Assembly (NCBI GenBank): GCA_048938295.1
Contig: JBHLMI010000024.1
Location: 11,725-43,724 of the forward strand
Origin: Promethearchaeota archaeon
GTDB taxonomy: Archaea; Asgardarchaeota; Hermodarchaeia; Hermodarchaeales; Hermodarchaeaceae
Direction: 5' to 3'
Length of the DNA stretch: 32,000 bases
Each line of letters begins with the position of its first letter. Position 1 is the first letter of the stretch. Below are positions 4,214-12,731 of this stretch, in pieces. The notes below the pieces were generated by a model that saw nothing but the letters and a program-made list of their open reading frames with translations, was not told where the DNA came from and did not search any database. The translations under genes and the position numbers were made by a program.

Positions 4214-4909
4214 TCATATGTAATATTCATAGGGATCGTATTCACTTCCGGGTTTAGACCGATTTCTCCAGATCCTAATGTGACGGTAGCTGTAGGCAAA
4301 GAGGAAACCCCCAAGAAATCCAAACACATGGGCTCCATGAGCGATACCTGTACTGAAAGCAAAGAACATCTGAATAACTTCAAGGATGAAGTAGATGATG
4401 ATTATATTCCAGGCACCAGCAGTCCGACCAGCATCCCCAGAGATGCCAATAGGACGGCGCGGAAGCAGATAAGCGTAGGCAGCCATTATTCCAAAGATTG
4501 CCCCAGAAGCGCCTATGGTCGGAATCGAAACGCCTCCTACACTAACAGCAGTACTAATGGTATACATTATTAGAGTGTGACCTAATCCTCCAATAATTCC
4601 TGAGAAGAGATAGAGCGTTAAGTAAGTGAATGGGTGCATTTCATGTTCTACGACTTGGCCGAAGATGAAAAGGAAGTACATATTGATTAACAGATGAAAG
4701 AAATCAGCGTGGAGGAATTGGCTTGTGATGAGTGTGTATAGTTTTTGACCCGCAACGATGTCTGAAGGAATCAGGGCAAATGAATACGTGATGGCGGGGT
4801 AGCCGAGTTGGACCTCGATACTAAATACGAGGATGAAGATGACGGTATTTAGGAGGATAAGGGTATATGTCATATAGGACCTTAGGGGTCTCGGGTAGTC
4901 ATAGGTCAC
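4214..4909 (-). CDS. Rhomboid family intramembrane serine protease
   Basis: LITSQFLHADFFHLLINM, catalytic GASG serine motif, and AHGAHVFGFLGG with the catalytic His; about 6 TM segments. Confidence 0.93.
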   Translation of the reverse strand: MTYDYPRPLRSYMTYTLILLNTVIFILVFSIEVQLGYPAITYSFALIPSDIVAGQKLYTLITSQFLHADFFHLLINMYFLFIFGQVVEHEMHPFTYLTLYLFSGIIGGLGHTLIMYTISTAVSVGGVSIPTIGASGAIFGIMAAYAYLLPRRPIGISGDAGRTAGAWNIIIIYFILEVIQMFFAFSTGIAHGAHVFGFLGGFLFAYSYRHIRIWRNRSKPGSEYDPYEYYI

Positions 4910-5041: not shown

Positions 5042-5419
5042 ATGGCGCTTCGTGATTTCCTCTATCCCTATCTTGAAGTAATTCTCGTTCTTGCGCGAGC
5101 CTTAGATGTGGATGAAGCCCAGGCCGCGTTTGGTAGTCTCTCAGAGGAGTATCAGCAAGTGGCTGCCCGGATACGAATTGCACCACATGACGCGCAACGA
5201 TTGAACCTCAAGGAGGAAGATCACGTTTTGGTAAACTCTGATATAGGTAGTGTGGTAGTGGTTGCGGAGATCCAATCTGATCAACCTGCGGGTATGGTCG
5301 TAATGCATCCTGGACCCTGGGCATTTGCTCTCATCGAAGCAATGATTCCAAGTCAGGGCACGGAGGTCACCATTAAACCAAGCACAGAACCTGTTACACC
5401 CCTTGACCAATTACTCTAA
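5042..5419 (+). CDS. fwdD: FwdD-like molybdopterin-dinucleotide-binding domain protein (divergent)
   Basis: IAPHDAQRLNLKEEDHVLVNSDIGSVVV...PAGMVVMHPGPWAFALI resembles FwdD (MNPED..LG..EGD.V.V.S..G.VVV...P.G.I.IP.GPWAN). The usual N-terminal TGRT is replaced by LARA. Confidence 0.72.
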   Translation: MALRDFLYPYLEVILVLARALDVDEAQAAFGSLSEEYQQVAARIRIAPHDAQRLNLKEEDHVLVNSDIGSVVVVAEIQSDQPAGMVVMHPGPWAFALIEAMIPSQGTEVTIKPSTEPVTPLDQLL

Positions 5420-6864
5420 CGGGACCGATTTTTTGAAGTGGCTTTTTCACTAGCTTTTAAACTGGGTTTCATCTTTTTTTGCGCTTCGTCTTTAACGGCT
5501 GCACACAAAGGTTCGACGCGACCTCGCTCGAAAAGCAAACGTAGCCGCCAATTTCTCCGAATGATCTCTTGGAGTTTCTGAATTCGTGCCTGGGCTTGTG
5601 TTCGACTGATCTTGTCTTCAGACCACTTCTCTGATTTAGTTTGCACCGAAGTTCCGTGTTCTGTGGGAGCGATTTTTATAACACGTTCGTAGATATCATT
5701 TCGTGGGGTGCTTAGGCCTATAAGGTGGTCATAGAACCTGTGAGCTCGTGCTCGTTCCCAATCCCGAGCTTGTTCAATTTGTGATAACGTATAGCTGTCA
5801 CGGCTAACCTTGAGGACCTCTTCGGGGCAGGCGTTTTCACACGCTCCACAGAATACGCAGATAGCTTTGTTGATGGCAATTTTATCTTTATCGCCGGTCG
5901 GATAGATGGCTTTGGTGGGGCAGATGTTAAAACAATTCACGCATCCTGTTGGATCACATTTCTCTAGATTATGAATCTCGATATCACCAGTAAGTGGTAA
6001 GGAGACCTCCAAGGCGTCAAACGGACATTTCTCAGCGCATAGTGTGCAGTCGACGCAGAGCCCGTCATCGATGGTCATAGTTCCTTCGACTTCTGGATCC
6101 CTAATGATCCGGGGCGGTGCGCTTTCACAGGTAACCTTCACGGCATCAGAAGGACAAATCTTCTCGCATAGCCCACAATAATCGCATTGTGTTGTATCGA
6201 CTCGGATACCAACAGCAGGTGCGAAATCTGGAGGTTTTGGTTTTTCCTCCGACCAGTAAATAGTGATGCATTCTGGGCATAGCAATTCACACAATCCGCA
6301 CCATGTGCATTTGTCCTCATCGATGACAATGGTTCCTTTGGCATCTGGATTCCCCCCAGCCACTCGTCTAGCAGCTTTGGGATCCTTGTAACTCACCAGT
6401 TTGGTTTTGGGGGTAACCTTAAGGTCAACAGTGATTGCATCACGGGGACAGAGTTTGGCACATAAAACACATGGCGCACATTTCTCCTCATCGAGCTTAT
6501 GTTTCCCTTTCAGCCGTGAATATTGCCGATCAGCAGGGATATCATCAAATCGGGCCTCAATCGCATTGAATAGGCAGGCAGAATCGCATAAGCCACAGAA
6601 AGTGCATTTATCTTCATCAATCAGAATGAGAGGTGCCTCTTCAAGACGTCCTGCCGCAATTTCTTGCACCGGGCCCAAGGTGATAGCGTCCCAAGGGCAC
6701 GGTAAACAGAGACTACAGCCAACACATCGAGACAGGTCATATTTGAGGTTCTTGTTCAGCAGCGACGTCTTCCAGTTATAACGAATGTTAGTGTCATCTA
6801 AGACTTCACTGGTCACTTTGGGGCGTTCACCGACAATAATACGGTCTCGCTGCACTTTTGTCAT
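5416..6864 (-). CDS. fwdF: FwdF-like polyferredoxin, 8 x [4Fe-4S] motifs plus C-terminal helical extension
   Basis: Eight motifs counted: CVGCSLCLPCP, CTFCGLCDSAC, CAPCVLCAKLCP, CTWCGLCELLCP, CDYCGLCEKICP, CVDCTLCAEKCP, CDPTGCVNCFNICP, CVFCGACENACP. The stop codon overlaps that of the convergent fwdD-like gene. Confidence 0.82.
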   Translation of the reverse strand: MTKVQRDRIIVGERPKVTSEVLDDTNIRYNWKTSLLNKNLKYDLSRCVGCSLCLPCPWDAITLGPVQEIAAGRLEEAPLILIDEDKCTFCGLCDSACLFNAIEARFDDIPADRQYSRLKGKHKLDEEKCAPCVLCAKLCPRDAITVDLKVTPKTKLVSYKDPKAARRVAGGNPDAKGTIVIDEDKCTWCGLCELLCPECITIYWSEEKPKPPDFAPAVGIRVDTTQCDYCGLCEKICPSDAVKVTCESAPPRIIRDPEVEGTMTIDDGLCVDCTLCAEKCPFDALEVSLPLTGDIEIHNLEKCDPTGCVNCFNICPTKAIYPTGDKDKIAINKAICVFCGACENACPEEVLKVSRDSYTLSQIEQARDWERARAHRFYDHLIGLSTPRNDIYERVIKIAPTEHGTSVQTKSEKWSEDKISRTQAQARIQKLQEIIRRNWRLRLLFERGRVEPLCAAVKDEAQKKMKPSLKASEKATSKNRSR

Positions 6865-6932: not shown

Positions 6933-8303
6933 CTAGGCATTATCCCGAATTCGATGTTTAATCTCTTTGCGGCTAGTAAGATAGATGCCCCCCATTACAG
7001 CAAGAACAATTAGGGCAAAAATCAAACCACTTGCAATAACTGGAATACCCAAACGATGAGGATCAACTGGAGATGGTGGTGCATCCGGAATCTGGGAAAG
7101 CCAGGTTGTTCCACTCAAAAATCCATAACTGGTGGTAGAACCGGCAAAAACCAAGTTACCACCACATTCTACTATCGATATTCCAACATCATTGCCTTCT
7201 CCTCCATACAGCTTCTGCCAAAGAATCTGACCATCATTATCAAAACGAACAACGATGATATCATGCCAGGGACTATTTTCCGTGTGAGATACCTCACCAA
7301 TCATCACATATCCACCATCACTACATGCTGTTATACAATGGGCAATATTATCAGTCTCCAAACCTAGCTGTTGAATCCATAGTACAGTGCCATCGGGAGC
7401 GGTATGAACAATATAGGAATCTAAACGACTATTGCCCATATCCTGCATCACCCCCGCTATTGTAAACTCGCCGGCACCTGTTACAATGATGCTATTTCCA
7501 CGACTATAAGCTGAATTCCCGAAAGTGCGTTCCCATTTGACTGCCCCATCAAATGCAGTATTGACGGCCCACATCCTAACCCCATTATCATCTAAACTCT
7601 CTGAAGATCCAACAAAGACTAGTCCCTGACCTGAATCTTCAATAACAGAATATAGATACTCATCTCCTAAACCTCCATATTCCCGATGCCAGTATAATGA
7701 ACCGTCCCTATCGAGCTTTATAACCAGCCCATCAACAGGATTGGTGGGTCGATAATGCCAAGCCCATCCACACACAATCAGATCACCAGACGGCAGTTCT
7801 GCAACAGCATAAGCTTCTTGGTGCTCAGTAAAGTTAAGGATTCGTTCCCAGAGGAGATAACCCAATTGATCGGTACGAAAAATAAGAACGTTTGAGAATT
7901 CATCATCTACCGCTCCAGCTACTACTAAATCACCATTATCGCATTCAATAACAGCTTGTCCCCAACCACGATGGTTAGGTGAGTAAGATCGTTCCCATTC
8001 AACTTCACCAAATAGGTCAATCTTTGCCATCCATGCATGCTCATCGCTGAGTCCAATTGCTGATTCTACGATGAAACCTGCAACGACAAACCCCCCAGTG
8101 CGACATTCGGTAATAGATCGGGGATGTCTTGCGGTCATATTGTCAAAAAATTGTACCCATTGAAAGTCAGTTTCGCGTTCCAAATTGTAGCTTAACTGAG
8201 ACTGTATAGCTGCTAATCCATTATTGGAGGTTGGAGTAAGGAATAAAGGAACATTAAACGAAACGAGGAGCAGACCAAGAAGCAGCGCGGTGACTTGTTG
8301 CAA
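6933..8303 (-). CDS. Single-pass membrane protein: signal peptide, 7-repeat beta-propeller ectodomain, C-terminal TM helix, short basic tail
   Basis: Seven repeats of the form (S/A)(I/V)xE..xGG(F/Y/L)VxxG...W.R.YGG; N-terminal hydrophobic stretch; TM IPVIASGLIFALIVLAVMGGIYL followed by TSRKEIKHRIRDNA. Confidence 0.8.
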   Translation of the reverse strand: MQQVTALLLGLLLVSFNVPLFLTPTSNNGLAAIQSQLSYNLERETDFQWVQFFDNMTARHPRSITECRTGGFVVAGFIVESAIGLSDEHAWMAKIDLFGEVEWERSYSPNHRGWGQAVIECDNGDLVVAGAVDDEFSNVLIFRTDQLGYLLWERILNFTEHQEAYAVAELPSGDLIVCGWAWHYRPTNPVDGLVIKLDRDGSLYWHREYGGLGDEYLYSVIEDSGQGLVFVGSSESLDDNGVRMWAVNTAFDGAVKWERTFGNSAYSRGNSIIVTGAGEFTIAGVMQDMGNSRLDSYIVHTAPDGTVLWIQQLGLETDNIAHCITACSDGGYVMIGEVSHTENSPWHDIIVVRFDNDGQILWQKLYGGEGNDVGISIVECGGNLVFAGSTTSYGFLSGTTWLSQIPDAPPSPVDPHRLGIPVIASGLIFALIVLAVMGGIYLTSRKEIKHRIRDNA

Positions 8304-8383: not shown

Positions 8384-10081
8384 TCATCTGCCAATCTTAC
8401 CAATGGGATATTTTCGTCGGTTGAACCGGTGACCACAGCTGGGGCAATAATTTCGTTTTGCTAACCATTCAAGCATATGATTCGAATGAGCGAGAACTTT
8501 GCACTTCGGACAAAAGAGAACTGGATCATCTTTACCGATGACTTGGCCACAAAATAAGCAAAAATGTGGATGACTGGTACACTTAATACAATGAAGATTA
8601 GACCTTGGGTTCAGTTCAGCACATTTCATGCAAGGTAATTTGCCCCGTAAGATAGGTGACAACTCATCAATTAACCAAGGAGTTAAAAGTGCCCTTTTAG
8701 TTACTCGGCGTTTCGGTTCAACCCAACTTTGTCTGAGCTCTCTTCGACTACGTATTAGCATCAAGTAGGCACCAAGAAGCATGAGAATGGCAAGACCACC
8801 ACCAGTACTAATTAATCTAAAATCTGGTGGACCATATTCAGGTGTTGGAATATATTCCGGACTAGTATCGGGGACTCGTATTGCTAAAGCCATCGAGTGT
8901 GAATTATAGAAGTCCTCAATGTGTCCATCCGTCAAACCTACTATGATGAAATCTCCATTCGGGGCTTGGACTATGGATCGACCTTCATCATCGTTGTCTG
9001 TGCCATAACTCTTCATCCACTGATATTCACCTTCACTGGTTAACCGGATAAGTAACAAATTATTCGATCTATCTGAGGTGTCAAAGGTTTGTCCTGCTAT
9101 CGCATACCCTCCATCTTGGCATTTTGTAATTACATAACCACGATCAAATAATATGCCACCAAATGTTGTCTCCCAAAGGACAATACCATTCCCATGAATT
9201 AAAGCTGCAAAGCCATCGGGAATCATATTCTCGGAATTTGCAGTGCTACCAACAAATGCATACATTTCTGTTTCTGATTCGATGATATCATAACATATAT
9301 CAGGCATTGGACCGCCAAGAGTGTAGTTCCATATTTCGACTCCATTTGCATAGGTCTTTACGATCCAAGCGTCTTCCTCCCCCGCGCCAAAACTTTCAGT
9401 TGAACCTGCTAAATAGAATTCTTGGCTAGGTGTTTCGATAAGAGAATAACAGATATCAGGAGCATTTCCACCATAGGTCCTGTTCCAGAGTTGGGTGCCT
9501 TCTTCGTCAGTGCGGACGAAGAAATAATCAGAATCATCACTGCCATAGTTTCGTTGAAATCCAGCTAATGCGAATCCATCGTTCTGGCATTCAACTAATG
9601 CCATTCCTTGTTCATAAGAAGAGACTCCACCATAAGTTCGATACCACATGGTTTGCCCTTCCTCATCAGTACGAAGGAGCAGGACATCATGATTATTTGA
9701 GGTTGTGTAGCCAATTACAGCAAATCCACCTGGTTGACATTCAACCACTTCCATTCCGCCTTGCGAGATATATTCCTGGAAAAATCTCCGCCATACAACT
9801 TCTCCATTCTCTCCTAACCGCATTAAAAAGATAGACCCGCGACCCTGAAAAATACCGGTTCCCGTGGCTAGATAGCCACCATCGCTACAGGCAATAACTG
9901 AATGGAAGATGTTTTGTCCTATTCCTAAATCCTCAGTCACGGTCCAGATTTGGTCTGAACTCACGAGACTGCTACTTGGGTTATTGAGTGGGGCTGGTTG
10001 TATCGCACTGGATGAAACGAGGTTTAATGCAAGGCTTGATAAAAGCAAACAAATGGTGAGTAGATATCTCAACCTCCGCAA
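8384..10081 (-). CDS. Receptor-like protein: signal peptide, 7-repeat beta-propeller, TM helix, cytoplasmic Zn ribbon and RING-finger-like domain (putative E3 ligase)
   Basis: Seven propeller repeats; TM LISTGGGLAILMLLGAYLMLI (aa 423-443) followed by RSRR; CMKC-x10-CIKC; then CLFC-x12-CPKC-x4-H-x2-H-MLEWL-x5-CPSC (aa 508-549). Confidence 0.8.
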   Translation of the reverse strand: MRRLRYLLTICLLLSSLALNLVSSSAIQPAPLNNPSSSLVSSDQIWTVTEDLGIGQNIFHSVIACSDGGYLATGTGIFQGRGSIFLMRLGENGEVVWRRFFQEYISQGGMEVVECQPGGFAVIGYTTSNNHDVLLLRTDEEGQTMWYRTYGGVSSYEQGMALVECQNDGFALAGFQRNYGSDDSDYFFVRTDEEGTQLWNRTYGGNAPDICYSLIETPSQEFYLAGSTESFGAGEEDAWIVKTYANGVEIWNYTLGGPMPDICYDIIESETEMYAFVGSTANSENMIPDGFAALIHGNGIVLWETTFGGILFDRGYVITKCQDGGYAIAGQTFDTSDRSNNLLLIRLTSEGEYQWMKSYGTDNDDEGRSIVQAPNGDFIIVGLTDGHIEDFYNSHSMALAIRVPDTSPEYIPTPEYGPPDFRLISTGGGLAILMLLGAYLMLIRSRRELRQSWVEPKRRVTKRALLTPWLIDELSPILRGKLPCMKCAELNPRSNLHCIKCTSHPHFCLFCGQVIGKDDPVLFCPKCKVLAHSNHMLEWLAKRNYCPSCGHRFNRRKYPIGKIGR

Positions 10082-10156: not shown

Positions 10157-12601
10157 CTACCGGGATTTTGTCATCACAGTTAACTCTGAACCAAGGGGGC
10201 CAATGTCTGCAATGGATTTGACAAAATCAGTAACCAGTTCAGCAAGCCTGCCACCTTCGGATGAAGCTGTACTAGCAAATAGGATTCGATCACTGTTGAT
10301 CCCCATTTCTTTCAGCAAAGGAAGCAGTTTTTCAACTCGTTCTTTGGCTTTAGCTGTACCTGTGCGGTAATGACAATCGGTTTCATGGCAACCGAGGATT
10401 ACTACTCCATCTGCTCCTTGACTGAAGCTCTCTAAGACTAGCAGAGGATCTAGGCGGCTTGTACATGGTACTCGAAGTGGTATCATTTGCGGGGGATACC
10501 GGATACGGTTTACACCAGCACTATCAGCGGCAGCATACGCACACCAGTTGCAAAGAAAGCCGATAATAACGGGGCGTAGTGAATTGCTTTGACACGCAAC
10601 ATCAACCGCGGAGAGAAGTTGTTGCCGCGTAAATCCTGGTAAATCCAAGGCACCCGTGGGACAAGCAGCGACACATGCTCCGCAGCCCGTACAAGCAAGT
10701 TCATGAATTTGGGGAGTTTCGGAACCTTCAAAGGAGATGGCATTGGCGTCGCACGTCTTTTCACAAAGTCGGCAGCTTTCACACAAGGCTTCGTCTACGA
10801 CCGGAGCATATACTTCCAATTTGATTTTTCGTGGATTCAAAAAGGCAGAAACCTGAGCCGCAGCCAGTCCCGCGTGCGCAACAGTATCAGCGATATCCTT
10901 AGGACCTTGTGATGTACCGGCTAAATAGATACCTGAAGAATAGGTTCCTGTGGGATTAAGCTTAGGATGTTTTTCTAAAAAGAAGTTATTCTCGTCGAGG
11001 GGGATGTTTAGCAACGTCGCTAGCTTCATATTGGATGGTGCTGGATCGACACCGACACTCAATACGACAAGATCAGCTGGAAATTCGATGGGTTCACAGA
11101 GTTCAGTATCTTCTGCGCGAATAAGGAGCTTGTTGGTTTGTGGGTCTTGTTCGATTTCTGCAACTCGACCACGAATGAAGGTGACCCCATGTTCTCGTGC
11201 GGCTCGTTCATACAGCTCCTCGAATCCTTTTCCGAAGGTTCGCATGTCCGTATAGAAGATGAACACTTCAGTATCAGGTTGTGACAAGCGGAGTTGAACT
11301 GCTTCCTTAACTGCATAAGTGCAGCAGATTCGACTACAATAGGGGCGGTTAATGCGAATATCTCGGCTACCGACACACTGAACAAATGCTACGCGTTTGG
11401 GTGGATCCCCTGTCGATGGCCGGACTATAACGCCGTTGGAGGGTCCAACAGGGTTCAGTAACCTTTCGAGTTCAGGTGCTGTAATGACATCGGGGTATTC
11501 TTCATATCCGTATTCCTTGAGGTTTTGGGGATCATAAGGCGTAAATCCTGTGGCGACAATGATTGCCCCAACCTTGAATTTATAGTCACGGTCTGAATCT
11601 TCGAATCGGATGGATTCTTTCTCACACACACCAACACAGGATTGACAGCCTACACAGGTATTCATATCGATGTAGGGTGCAAGGGGGACTGTGTTCGGAT
11701 AGGGACGAATAATCGCTCGTCGCGTTCCAATGCCATATTCATATTCGTTGGGTTCGTCGATGGGGCATATTTCTAGACATTTGTTACACCCATTGCAGGT
11801 CTCTAAATCCACATACCGTGGGTCCTGATGCACTTTGACCTGATAGGCGCCGGGTGTGCCTTGAACCGCCGTCACCTCGCTGAGAGTGAGCACCTCAATT
11901 TTTGGATGATTGGCTACCTGGGTCATAAGGGGTCCGAGGATGCAGAGACTGCAATCGAGGCTTGGGAACAGTTTATCCCATTTAGCCATGTGTCCTCCAA
12001 GAAATCCACTCTTTTCAACGAGTACCACTTCATATCCTGCATTCGCAAGGTGTAAGGCAGATGTTATGCCGGCAGGTCCTCCACCTATAACCAGGACGCG
12101 CTTGGTAATTGGTATGCTCATCGAACTGATAGCTAGTCCATGCTGGGCCATTGTCAACGCCGCATCAATCATCAGTTGTGCTTTAGCGGTTGCTGCAGCG
12201 GGATTATCCCAATGAACCCAACTACATTGTTCCCGGATATTGGCAATGGCGAGATGTCCGCGGTTCAATCCAGCTTCTTCGATAGTCTGGCTCATGAGCT
12301 CTCCGTGTAACCGTGGAGAGCAGGCAGCAACCACGACGTGATTCACCTTTTCCTTGCGGATGGTATCACGAATTTGATTCAGTCCTTGTTCAACGCAGAA
12401 GTGGGCATCTTCAACGACGATGAGTTTGGGTTGCTTTTGATAATGTTCGACGAGAGCATCGATATCCACAATACTGTCGATATTGGATCCGCAGCGACAC
12501 AGAAATAACGCGGTCTTGTCAGAGGATCTAGGTGCAGGTTTGCGGCGAATCTTCTTGGATTGGGATTTCTGTGCTTTCGTTTTTGAGGTCTTTGCCACCA
12601 T
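10157..12601 (-). CDS. hdrA: Heterodisulfide reductase subunit A fused to a C-terminal MvhD [2Fe-2S] domain
   Basis: LFLCRCGSNI, AACSPRLH, NIREQCSWVH, FAD motif GGGPAGITSA, FPSLDCSLCIL, ELERLL, CVGSRD..PYCSRICCTYAVKEA and two ferredoxin pairs. The MvhD part shows GFLCNWCAYAAAD, RVPCTSRLDP and GCHETDCHY. Start placed at ATG 12601 behind a GGTGA SD (the track starts at GTG 12607). Confidence 0.95.
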   Translation of the reverse strand: MVAKTSKTKAQKSQSKKIRRKPAPRSSDKTALFLCRCGSNIDSIVDIDALVEHYQKQPKLIVVEDAHFCVEQGLNQIRDTIRKEKVNHVVVAACSPRLHGELMSQTIEEAGLNRGHLAIANIREQCSWVHWDNPAAATAKAQLMIDAALTMAQHGLAISSMSIPITKRVLVIGGGPAGITSALHLANAGYEVVLVEKSGFLGGHMAKWDKLFPSLDCSLCILGPLMTQVANHPKIEVLTLSEVTAVQGTPGAYQVKVHQDPRYVDLETCNGCNKCLEICPIDEPNEYEYGIGTRRAIIRPYPNTVPLAPYIDMNTCVGCQSCVGVCEKESIRFEDSDRDYKFKVGAIIVATGFTPYDPQNLKEYGYEEYPDVITAPELERLLNPVGPSNGVIVRPSTGDPPKRVAFVQCVGSRDIRINRPYCSRICCTYAVKEAVQLRLSQPDTEVFIFYTDMRTFGKGFEELYERAAREHGVTFIRGRVAEIEQDPQTNKLLIRAEDTELCEPIEFPADLVVLSVGVDPAPSNMKLATLLNIPLDENNFFLEKHPKLNPTGTYSSGIYLAGTSQGPKDIADTVAHAGLAAAQVSAFLNPRKIKLEVYAPVVDEALCESCRLCEKTCDANAISFEGSETPQIHELACTGCGACVAACPTGALDLPGFTRQQLLSAVDVACQSNSLRPVIIGFLCNWCAYAAADSAGVNRIRYPPQMIPLRVPCTSRLDPLLVLESFSQGADGVVILGCHETDCHYRTGTAKAKERVEKLLPLLKEMGINSDRILFASTASSEGGRLAELVTDFVKSIADIGPLGSELTVMTKSR

Positions 12602-12731
12602 AGTCACCGTTACGCCTTACCATTTCTTCTGGCGGCAATATACGTTTTAACAGTTTTTACGTTACAATCCCTCGATTTAATTATTAAGGCAATTGGTAAA
12701 TGAATTCGGCTGGTTGGTGCCGAAGAGATAA

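Follow-up and report, generated by a model that had tools for sequence, protein, structure and literature searches.

A predicted propeller-transmembrane-RING protein of an Asgard archaeon as a candidate membrane-anchored ubiquitin ligase

Known RING systems and the hermodarchaeal locus

Working E1/E2/RING-E3 cascades and a link between ubiquitin and ESCRT are established for archaeal operons. Here we describe a gene in a 32,000-nucleotide window of a Promethearchaeota archaeon (Asgardarchaeota, Hermodarchaeaceae; contig JBHLMI010000024.1 of assembly GCA_048938295.1). It encodes a 565-residue protein, hereafter the propeller-RING protein, with a predicted signal sequence, a seven-bladed beta-propeller, a single transmembrane helix and a C-terminal tail in which a zinc ribbon is followed by a RING finger. 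A membrane-anchored ubiquitin ligase is probable because this layout matches that of eukaryotic membrane-bound ubiquitin ligases. We put the probability that the protein is a membrane-anchored RING E3 of the lineage of the small archaeal RING E3s (srfp) at roughly 0.6, a reading for which we infer E2 binding, catalysis, ligand sensing, substrates and a link to ESCRT.

Archaeal ubiquitin clusters form working E1/E2/RING-E3 cascades (PMC5654768; bioRxiv 10.1101/2023.07.25.550441), and the helarchaeial cascade has been reconstituted in vitro (10.1101/2023.07.25.550441). A cluster of UEV-Vps23, RING E3 and ubiquitin occurs in Hermodarchaeia and other Asgard classes (10.1101/2023.07.25.550441). The srfp, exemplified by the Csub operon of Caldiarchaeum subterraneum, by the RING E3 of the Helarchaeia E1/E2/RING E3 system and by a copy on contig C53 of the genome studied here (L004:1351-1677), have the same RING variant as the propeller-RING protein: C-x2-C, C-x2-C-x4-H-x2-H and C-P-x-C, with a Trp after ligand 6. 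Both score near the Pfam RING threshold. In the active Caldiarchaeum srfp, C3 and H4 are displaced by two residues and an extra Cys is present, the same shift as in the propeller-RING protein (Hennell James et al., PMC5654768). However, the operon srfp is a soluble protein of ~108 amino acids without zinc ribbon, transmembrane helix or ectodomain, whereas the propeller-RING protein has all three. The operon srfp has an Arg at the linchpin position and adjoins ubiquitin, E2 and E1 genes, whereas here the residue is Gly and there are no such neighbours. Judged by its sequence, the propeller-RING protein belongs by descent with the archaeal small RING E3s.

The PA-TM-RING ligases (RNF13, GRAIL/RNF128 and plant RMR1) and RNF43/ZNRF3 are type I proteins with the ectodomain outside and a RING-H2-like domain inside, as predicted for the propeller-RING protein, in which the signal peptide, single transmembrane segment and cytosolic RING-H2 layout of the PA-TM-RING ligases are all present. 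The original prediction, made from the letters of the window alone, had already likened the protein to RNF43, ZNRF3 and GRAIL. This holds for the layout, but not for the PA domain or the ligand order. No Pfam PA match was obtained, the ectodomain being a seven-bladed propeller, and the RING is preceded by a zinc ribbon and has the order C4H2C2, compared to C3H2C3 in the PA-TM-RING ligases. The likeness to eukaryotic ectodomain-TM-RING ligases is one of layout, not of membership, and nothing indicates common descent of the whole architecture.

Subunits of GATOR2/SEA (WDR59, WDR24 and MIOS; Sea2-4) and of IFT-A (WDR19/IFT144, IFT122 and IFT121) carry, like the propeller-RING protein, a tandem of a four-Cys ribbon and a RING-like finger at the extreme C-terminus. 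However, these subunits are coat-like, with a cytosolic WD40 propeller and an alpha-solenoid, whereas the propeller described here is predicted to be extracytoplasmic, is not of the WD40 type, and is joined to a transmembrane helix with no solenoid. In WDR19 at least, most of the RING ligands are lost in the alignment. The ribbon-RING likeness to GATOR2, SEA and IFT-A gives a lead to where those modules came from, without demonstrating a relationship.

Prokaryotic RING finger families were reportedly treated by Burroughs, Iyer and Aravind in 2011. Prok-RING_1 (PF14446), a RING finger found outside eukaryotes, gave sub-threshold matches in 7/8 orthologs of the propeller-RING protein (best E 5.5e-5), all under the 29.1-bit threshold and covering only positions 6-32 of the 54 in the model. 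The family is nearer to eukaryotic RING-H2 domains and archaeal srfp than to Prok-RING_1. A full-text literature search found no paper on Asgard proteins of the propeller-TM-RING kind or on other receptor-like RING proteins of these archaea, and a 2026 preprint names RING-type E3 ligases only among Asgard-eukaryote solenoid clusters. Asgard ubiquitin cascades and RING E3s are known; receptor-like, membrane-anchored members were not found in the literature.

The zinc-ribbon/RING tail and the ubiquitin system of the genome

The ribbon has the spacing C484-x2-C487-x10-C498-x2-C501, the codon of C484 beginning at nt 8632, and the RING finger has the spacing C508-x2-C511-x12-C524-x2-C527-x4-H532-x2-H535-x3-W539-x6-C546-P547-x-C549. 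Both motifs had been read from the letters beforehand, and they recur residue for residue in the translation at the positions then given (ribbon from nt 8632, RING at nt 8435-8560). Eight full-length orthologs sharing 31-67% identity all retain the 12 zinc ligands, W539, L540 and P547. RING E3s contact the E2 through a hydrophobic residue before ligand 2, a Trp in the helix and a Pro after ligand 7; F510, W539 and P547 occupy these positions, and F510 too is conserved in the orthologs. The earlier view that the Trp four residues after the sixth ligand and the final CPxC are E2-binding features of a RING agrees with the invariance of W539 and P547 in the orthologs. In the wider family (173 RING domains), the eight RING ligands hardly vary. 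V, I or F precedes ligand 2 in 170/173, the helix after ligand 6 contains the Trp in 155/173, and all 173/173 have the Pro after ligand 7.

Two other zinc-finger assignments were considered and not adopted. The ligand pattern is not that of a PHD finger (C4HC3): ligand 6 is His in 151/173 domains and the residue two before C546 is N544, not Trp; the position of the conserved Trp, four residues past ligand 6, is that of RING-H2. A RanBP2/NZF reading of the first ribbon would fit the spacing C-x2-C-x3-N-x6-C-x2-C, but N491 is not conserved in the orthologs and no Trp precedes the first Cys. On sequence grounds, the first zinc domain is treated as a generic four-Cys ribbon.

The AlphaFold2 model of the tail reached a predicted local distance difference test (pLDDT) value of 80.7. 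Its RING part superposes on RNF165 (Foldseek template modelling score by target 0.85, root-mean-square deviation (rmsd) 1.1 Å, 47 columns; VIA Z 6.4, 49/49 residues), likewise on EL5, RNF24, RNF126, RNF38 and RNF12, and at Z 5.2-5.3 on RNF13 and RMR1, which are PA-TM-RING ligases. The top fold matches of residues 504-552 were all RING or U-box domains. Among the 50 best fold matches, the sole PHD-named entry was the PHF7-UBE2D2 complex (Z 5.0), and the entries above it were RING, U-box or zinc finger (ZnF) plus RING domains. The tail models as a RING fold, and its superposition on solved RINGs suggests a cross-braced arrangement of the ligands.

Profile searches gave the same picture. A profile of 8 tail sequences, searched against all sequences of the Protein Data Bank (PDB), reached RNF24 at E 1.7e-5. 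A 67-sequence profile of the module reached RNF4 (E 5.8e-10) and RNF24 (5.6e-8), then ARK2C, EL5, RNF165 and Arkadia at ~1e-7; weaker matches were ZNRF3 (5.9e-5) and RNF13 (7.5e-4), with AMFR and synoviolin also present. With the RNF165-type superposition, the match to RNF4 and a modelled domain that is neither a PHD finger nor a double zinc ribbon, the initial assignment of the C-terminal domain to the RING fold is supported.

The source genome (2.5 Mb, 66 contigs, 91.6% complete) encodes a ubiquitin system. The ubiquitin, E1, E2 and JAB genes that the original prediction had proposed to look for are all present, as are a UEV and an operon RING E3. Neither of the two outcomes that would have spoken against that prediction, a non-RING fold or a genome lacking ubiquitin conjugation, was obtained. 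On contig C53, the order is a UEV-type E2 fold (opposite strand), a coiled-coil protein, a 108-residue RING protein, ubiquitin with a Gly-Gly end, E2 and E1, while the JAB gene lies elsewhere in the genome, outside this cluster. Ubiquitin spans L004:1681-1926 and the E2 spans L004:2124-2585, and the E1 begins at L004:2561. The tail of the propeller-RING protein shares 34% identity over 62 residues with the operon RING E3 (E 6e-10), with the eight ligands in register. This E3 is the closest sequence relative of the RING within the genome, and the RING is, on sequence, a paralog of the small RING E3 of the ubiquitin operon.

In 301 genomes of the phylum, searched with the tail profile and for the E2 family, the RING module was found in 210 and the E2 in 209; related genomes are not independent in this comparison, and the co-occurrence is partly built in because the tail profile also detects the operon RING E3. 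Tallies of module and E2 per family were identical (e.g. 0/76, 0/5, and 1/7 with the same genome in both counts). Module and E2 disagreed in one genome only, which is 77% complete, and no E2-lacking genome among the 301 other than this incomplete one has a member of the RING family, membrane-anchored or not.

Prediction of a complex between the cognate E2 and the tail gave a score of 0.34 (best of 3 controls, 0.00), a weak result to which we give little weight. The mark applied was reached by 51/78 solved complexes and by 2/108 mismatched pairs, and scores of 0.60 or less included only 5 of those 78 solved complexes reaching the mark and all 4 passing mismatches. The three runs shared at least 96% of contacts, and the pLDDT of the partner was at least 67. 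The pass may mirror likeness only, because RING-E2 complexes have already been solved.

Ligase activity and other readings of the tail

As a ligase, the propeller-RING protein would work as follows. A cleavable or anchoring signal sequence would send the propeller outside, and one helix would cross the membrane. The RING would recruit the ubiquitin-charged E2, whose gene lies in the UEV/RING/Ub/E2/E1 cluster of a different contig, and would promote ubiquitin transfer, the acceptors being lysines in the protein's own tail or in adjacent membrane proteins. The propeller may bind an extracellular or cell-surface ligand and set where or when this transfer happens; downstream, the mark could plausibly be read by the ubiquitin-binding ESCRT machinery that the genome encodes.

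Several observations weigh against this reading, in addition to the part of the E2 co-occurrence that is built in. The Pfam RING model zf-RING_2 (PF13639) scores 16.6-22.2 bits, under its gathering cut-off of 27.3. Its matches to 7/8 orthologs have E-values of 0.01 or below, and the operon RING E3 itself barely clears the cut-off (27.6 vs. 27.3 bits). The double-zinc-ribbon model DZR (PF12773) scores 17.2-24.7 bits, approximately equal to the RING model and likewise below its cut-off of 27.3. The folds are AlphaFold2 predictions computed without zinc. A linchpin Arg activates the E2~Ub conjugate in many RING E3s, and some active RINGs do without it. The linchpin position after ligand 8 is Gly550, not Arg or Lys, whereas the operon RING E3 of the genome has an Arg; across the family the position is Gly in 48/173, Lys in 40/173 and Arg in 30/173 (Lys or Arg in 70/173). 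No ubiquitin-system gene lies near the propeller-RING gene, which is surrounded by conserved genes for redox enzymes, a propeller paralog and a rhomboid. Finally, taken as a whole, the tail is closest in structure to the C-terminal domains of GATOR2, SEA and IFT-A subunits, which are mainly assembly modules or junctions.

This last point leads to the alternative that survives best, although we consider it rather unlikely: the ribbon-RING tail would be a structural or oligomerisation module without ligase activity, pairing with the tails of TM-RING paralogs or with a cytoplasmic scaffold, and the protein would be a surface propeller (adhesin, lectin or envelope component). The whole tail best matches the C-terminal domain of WDR59 (Z 9.8, rmsd 1.7 Å, 71 residues aligned), followed by WDR24 (Z 8.3) and SEA subunits (Z 7.5), in a range of 9.8 to 7.2 at 24-29% identity. 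The Foldseek E-values against the GATOR2/SEA/IFT-A C-terminal domains are 1e-4 to 1e-3. As whole-tail matches, WDR59, WDR24 and the SEA domains outscore any isolated catalytic RING, but the higher Z results partly from aligning two domains and not one. The sequence profiles also reach these proteins: with the 67-sequence profile, WDR19/IFT144 was matched at 4.8e-9, IFT122 at 1.1e-6 and MIOS, WDR24 and WDR59 at ~1e-5 (4.8e-9 to 6.5e-5 for the set), and the Pfam model Zf_2nd_IFT121 was matched at 1.4e-4. The Gly at the linchpin position would suit a structural module, and at least three other paralogs with transmembrane segment, zinc ribbon and RING in the genome are possible pairing partners. 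However, the E2-contact signature is kept across the family, and a pure assembly role would not need these residues. Moreover, the closest relative in the genome is the E3 of the ubiquitin operon, and the family is absent from the E2-lacking genomes searched, save the incomplete one.

A broader evolutionary proposal is unlikely at present. According to it, the Asgard ribbon-RING cassette would be the prokaryotic ancestor of the ZnF+RING C-termini of GATOR2/SEA, IFT-A and possibly HOPS/CORVET, acting as both E3 and pairing module in Asgard cells, and the receptor family would represent a pre-eukaryotic coupling of surface events to ubiquitin marking and ESCRT sorting.

A double zinc ribbon finds no support in the modelled fold: the DZR match fuses the true ribbon with RING ligands 1-4, which the model places in the RING fold. 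The related reading of the tail as a non-ubiquitin zinc-finger signalling domain (a double or triple ribbon binding nucleic acid or protein, perhaps freed by intramembrane proteolysis) is very improbable. In its favour, DZR matches 8/8 orthologs (best E 6.3e-7) and on the propeller-RING protein has a slight lead in score over the RING model, relatives are publicly annotated as 'zinc ribbon domain-containing protein', and a rhomboid gene is found at a distance of 3.5 kb, an arrangement shared with a Hermodarchaeota relative. Against it, the modelled fold is a RING cross-brace and not a series of sequential ribbons, with residues 504-552 matching RING or U-box domains, the deeper profile reaches catalytic RINGs at E down to 5.8e-10, the zinc-ribbon matches take in only the first ribbon and half of the RING, and the link to the rhomboid is one of proximity alone.

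Distribution, topology and genomic setting

A word-based homolog search with the tail alone returned only the protein itself and one ortholog and was too insensitive; an exhaustive profile search was used instead. Among 1.84 billion representatives, this search returned 1,716 proteins with E-values of 1e-3 or below, of which 172 reached 1e-10 or below. Architectures were counted in the 149 best representatives with the module. The module lies 25 residues or less from the C-terminus in 142/149, and hydrophobic or transmembrane segments precede it in 87/149. Signal peptide, ectodomain and transmembrane segment together were found in 17 of the 149 representatives, an N-terminal anchor only in 15 and a multi-pass arrangement in 17. 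The ectodomains joined to the module are mutually unrelated (propellers of the type described here, FG-GAP propellers, PPC, NosD-like beta-helix, Ig-like and CarboxypepD_reg domains), and in soluble bearers the module is joined to HEAT repeats, to several winged-helix domains or to a PLD-like domain. By analogy, a conserved C-terminal effector with variable recognition modules would follow the pattern of eukaryotic RING E3 families. All bearers with a named source come from Asgard metagenome-assembled genomes (MAGs; Promethearchaeati, Hodarchaeota and Freyarchaeota), and their public labels are zinc-ribbon, FG-GAP or PPC proteins, never RING. Orthologs of the propeller-RING protein (frames of 540-600 amino acids, E 1e-21 to 1e-36) were found in most of the same-genus genomes searched.

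In this Asgard family, receptor-like membrane proteins with exchangeable ectodomains would carry a RING of the operon type on their inner side, and the members are concrete candidates for directing ubiquitin marking to the membrane before eukaryotes arose. The tail, E1, E2 and ubiquitin are all encoded in one genome, which makes a directly testable system. The family is easily missed in surveys of eukaryotic signature proteins, because its members are labelled zinc-ribbon or hypothetical proteins and the public gene call of the propeller-RING protein is without the signal peptide.

Three further paralogs in the genome have a transmembrane segment, zinc ribbon and RING without a large ectodomain (contigs C5/C41, C50 and C8). 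The ends of C5 (L011) and C41 (L014) share a 25-residue RING segment and together appear to encode one protein that has an N-terminal transmembrane segment, a zinc ribbon and a tandem pair of RINGs; the repeated RING is the probable site of the break in the assembly. C50:78822-79034 (L012) and C8:54702-54929 (L015) lie in frames of 188 and 174 codons with an N-terminal transmembrane segment, a ribbon and a C4H2C2 RING, and are minimal membrane-anchored family members. Among the soluble bearers, a protein of ~690 amino acids (P0240, P0253, P0259, P0238) combines several winged-helix (PCI/TrmB/FeoC-like) domains with a C-terminal ribbon-RING. It occurs as frames of ~690-700 amino acids in many genomes of several Asgard families, and some copies clear the Pfam RING threshold. 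The HEAT-repeat (alpha-solenoid) proteins P0267, P0136 and P0151 end in the ribbon-RING, one of them joined to a PLD-like domain; this order of solenoid, ZnF and RING recalls eukaryotic GATOR2 and HOPS-type subunits.

Table 1. Features of the propeller-RING gene, in nucleotide positions of the window
Feature	Coordinates	Strand	Basis
Whole gene	8384..10081	-	565 codons and stop, TTG start; N-terminus and start position kept in L020
Signal peptide / N-terminal hydrophobic segment, residues 1-28	9998..10081	-	Basic n-region, hydrophobic core, SSA|I-type end
Extracytoplasmic seven-bladed beta-propeller (predicted), residues 46-403	8873..9946	-	SBBP / delta-60 / DUF5122 repeat type
Single transmembrane helix, residues 423-445	8747..8815	-	Hydropathy, flank charges; positive-inside
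Basic cytoplasmic juxtamembrane linker (predicted), residues 446-483	8633..8746	-	K/R-rich; model helices 458-464 and 471-474
Four-Cys zinc ribbon, C484, C487, C498, C501	8579..8632	-	Cys invariant in orthologs; model beta-hairpin 481-492
RING finger, C4H2C2 variant, C508, C511, C524, C527, H532, H535, C546, C549	8435..8560	-	Fold, profile, conservation
Short basic C-terminal extension, residues 550-565, and stop codon	8384..8434	-	Translation; low pLDDT at the end of the tail model

The coordinates of the features are collected in Table 1. The signal peptide, the seven propeller repeats and the single positive-inside helix of the original prediction were all recovered. A hydropathy scan placed the N-terminal hydrophobic segment at residues 4-28, and the segment is aligned in the orthologs. 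Tat export was ruled out, as the RR of the n-region is not kept in the orthologs. A full-length AlphaFold2 model was obtained from an 83-sequence alignment (mean pLDDT 90.1); it has a helix at residues 2-26 followed by a low-confidence stretch at 27-41, and a helix over residues 421-452 that covers the transmembrane segment, for which the earlier limits had been nt ~8753-8815; the small zinc domains are also formed in this model. The 15 residues after this segment hold 6 K+R and the 15 before it hold 1. The ectodomain is acidic (56 D+E vs. 17 K+R), while the tail is basic (21 K+R vs. 6 D+E). The protein is predicted from these features to be a type I membrane protein, with the propeller outside and the zinc-ribbon/RING tail inside.

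The seven repeats of the propeller are each marked by a Trp (W46, W97, W146, W199, W251, W303 and W355), and the model has 28 strands across the domain, corresponding to 7 blades of 4 strands, with pLDDT mostly 92-98 in the propeller blocks. The seven blades of ~50-residue repeats expected of the SBBP / delta-60 / DUF5122 type are present in the model, and the curated repeat models of Pfam and NCBIfam match weakly, below threshold only. Among solved structures, CylK gave the top propeller match (E 3.4e-22, 21% identity), far ahead of lectin and BamB-type propellers. More than 2,000 sequence relatives carry the repeat, a large bacterial and archaeal family of secreted or surface proteins, and in AlphaFold DB clusters related propellers are joined to many surface modules.

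The frame is open through 565 codons from a TTG start. The public gene call (P0003) is 526 residues long and begins at an internal GTG at residue 40, so that the signal peptide is absent, which would mislead localisation predictions. The longer reading was adopted because the N-termini of orthologs align as hydrophobic and because the closest public relative, on contig JAEOUH010000017.1 of a Candidatus Hermodarchaeota MAG (L020, 85% identity, the one relative found by a single-protein locus scan), has a GTG start at the equivalent position, immediately 3' of a stop codon. The N-terminal hydrophobic region is also kept in this ortholog. In the comparison with L020, the ratio of non-synonymous to synonymous substitution rates (dN/dS) was 0.088 in the RING, 0.23 in the ribbon, 0.15 in the stalk and transmembrane helix and 0.435 in the ectodomain (one pair, short windows). 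This contrast is consistent with constraint on a cytoplasmic effector and faster evolution of a surface domain. The juxtamembrane linker is the least conserved part (64.5% identity). Conservation, synteny and dN/dS ruled out that the frame is open by chance and not a gene.

The gene order shared with L020 is a 427-residue open reading frame (ORF), a 157-residue ORF, an HdrA-MvhD fusion, the propeller-RING gene, a propeller paralog, a polyferredoxin and a rhomboid. The neighbourhood, which is metabolic, gave no functional link: the neighbours are the HdrA-MvhD fusion, polyferredoxin, CofC, MFS, PPDK and rhomboid genes, with no ubiquitin genes among them. The HdrA-MvhD fusion (816 residues, 10157-12607, minus strand) and the polyferredoxin (482 residues, 5416-6864, minus strand) flank the two propeller genes. 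The gene directly downstream of the propeller-RING gene (6933..8303, minus strand) is a paralog with 27% identity, encoding a seven-blade propeller with a signal sequence and a C-terminal transmembrane helix, after which only ~14 cytoplasmic residues follow, without a zinc domain. The two genes also stand together in the Hermodarchaeota relative, where this paralog is more diverged (72% identity) than its neighbours; its product might serve as a co-receptor or decoy for the copy with the RING. Rhomboids cleave single-pass membrane proteins, and the rhomboid intramembrane protease gene (4214-4909, minus strand), near the two single-pass propeller genes, has kept its position in L020.

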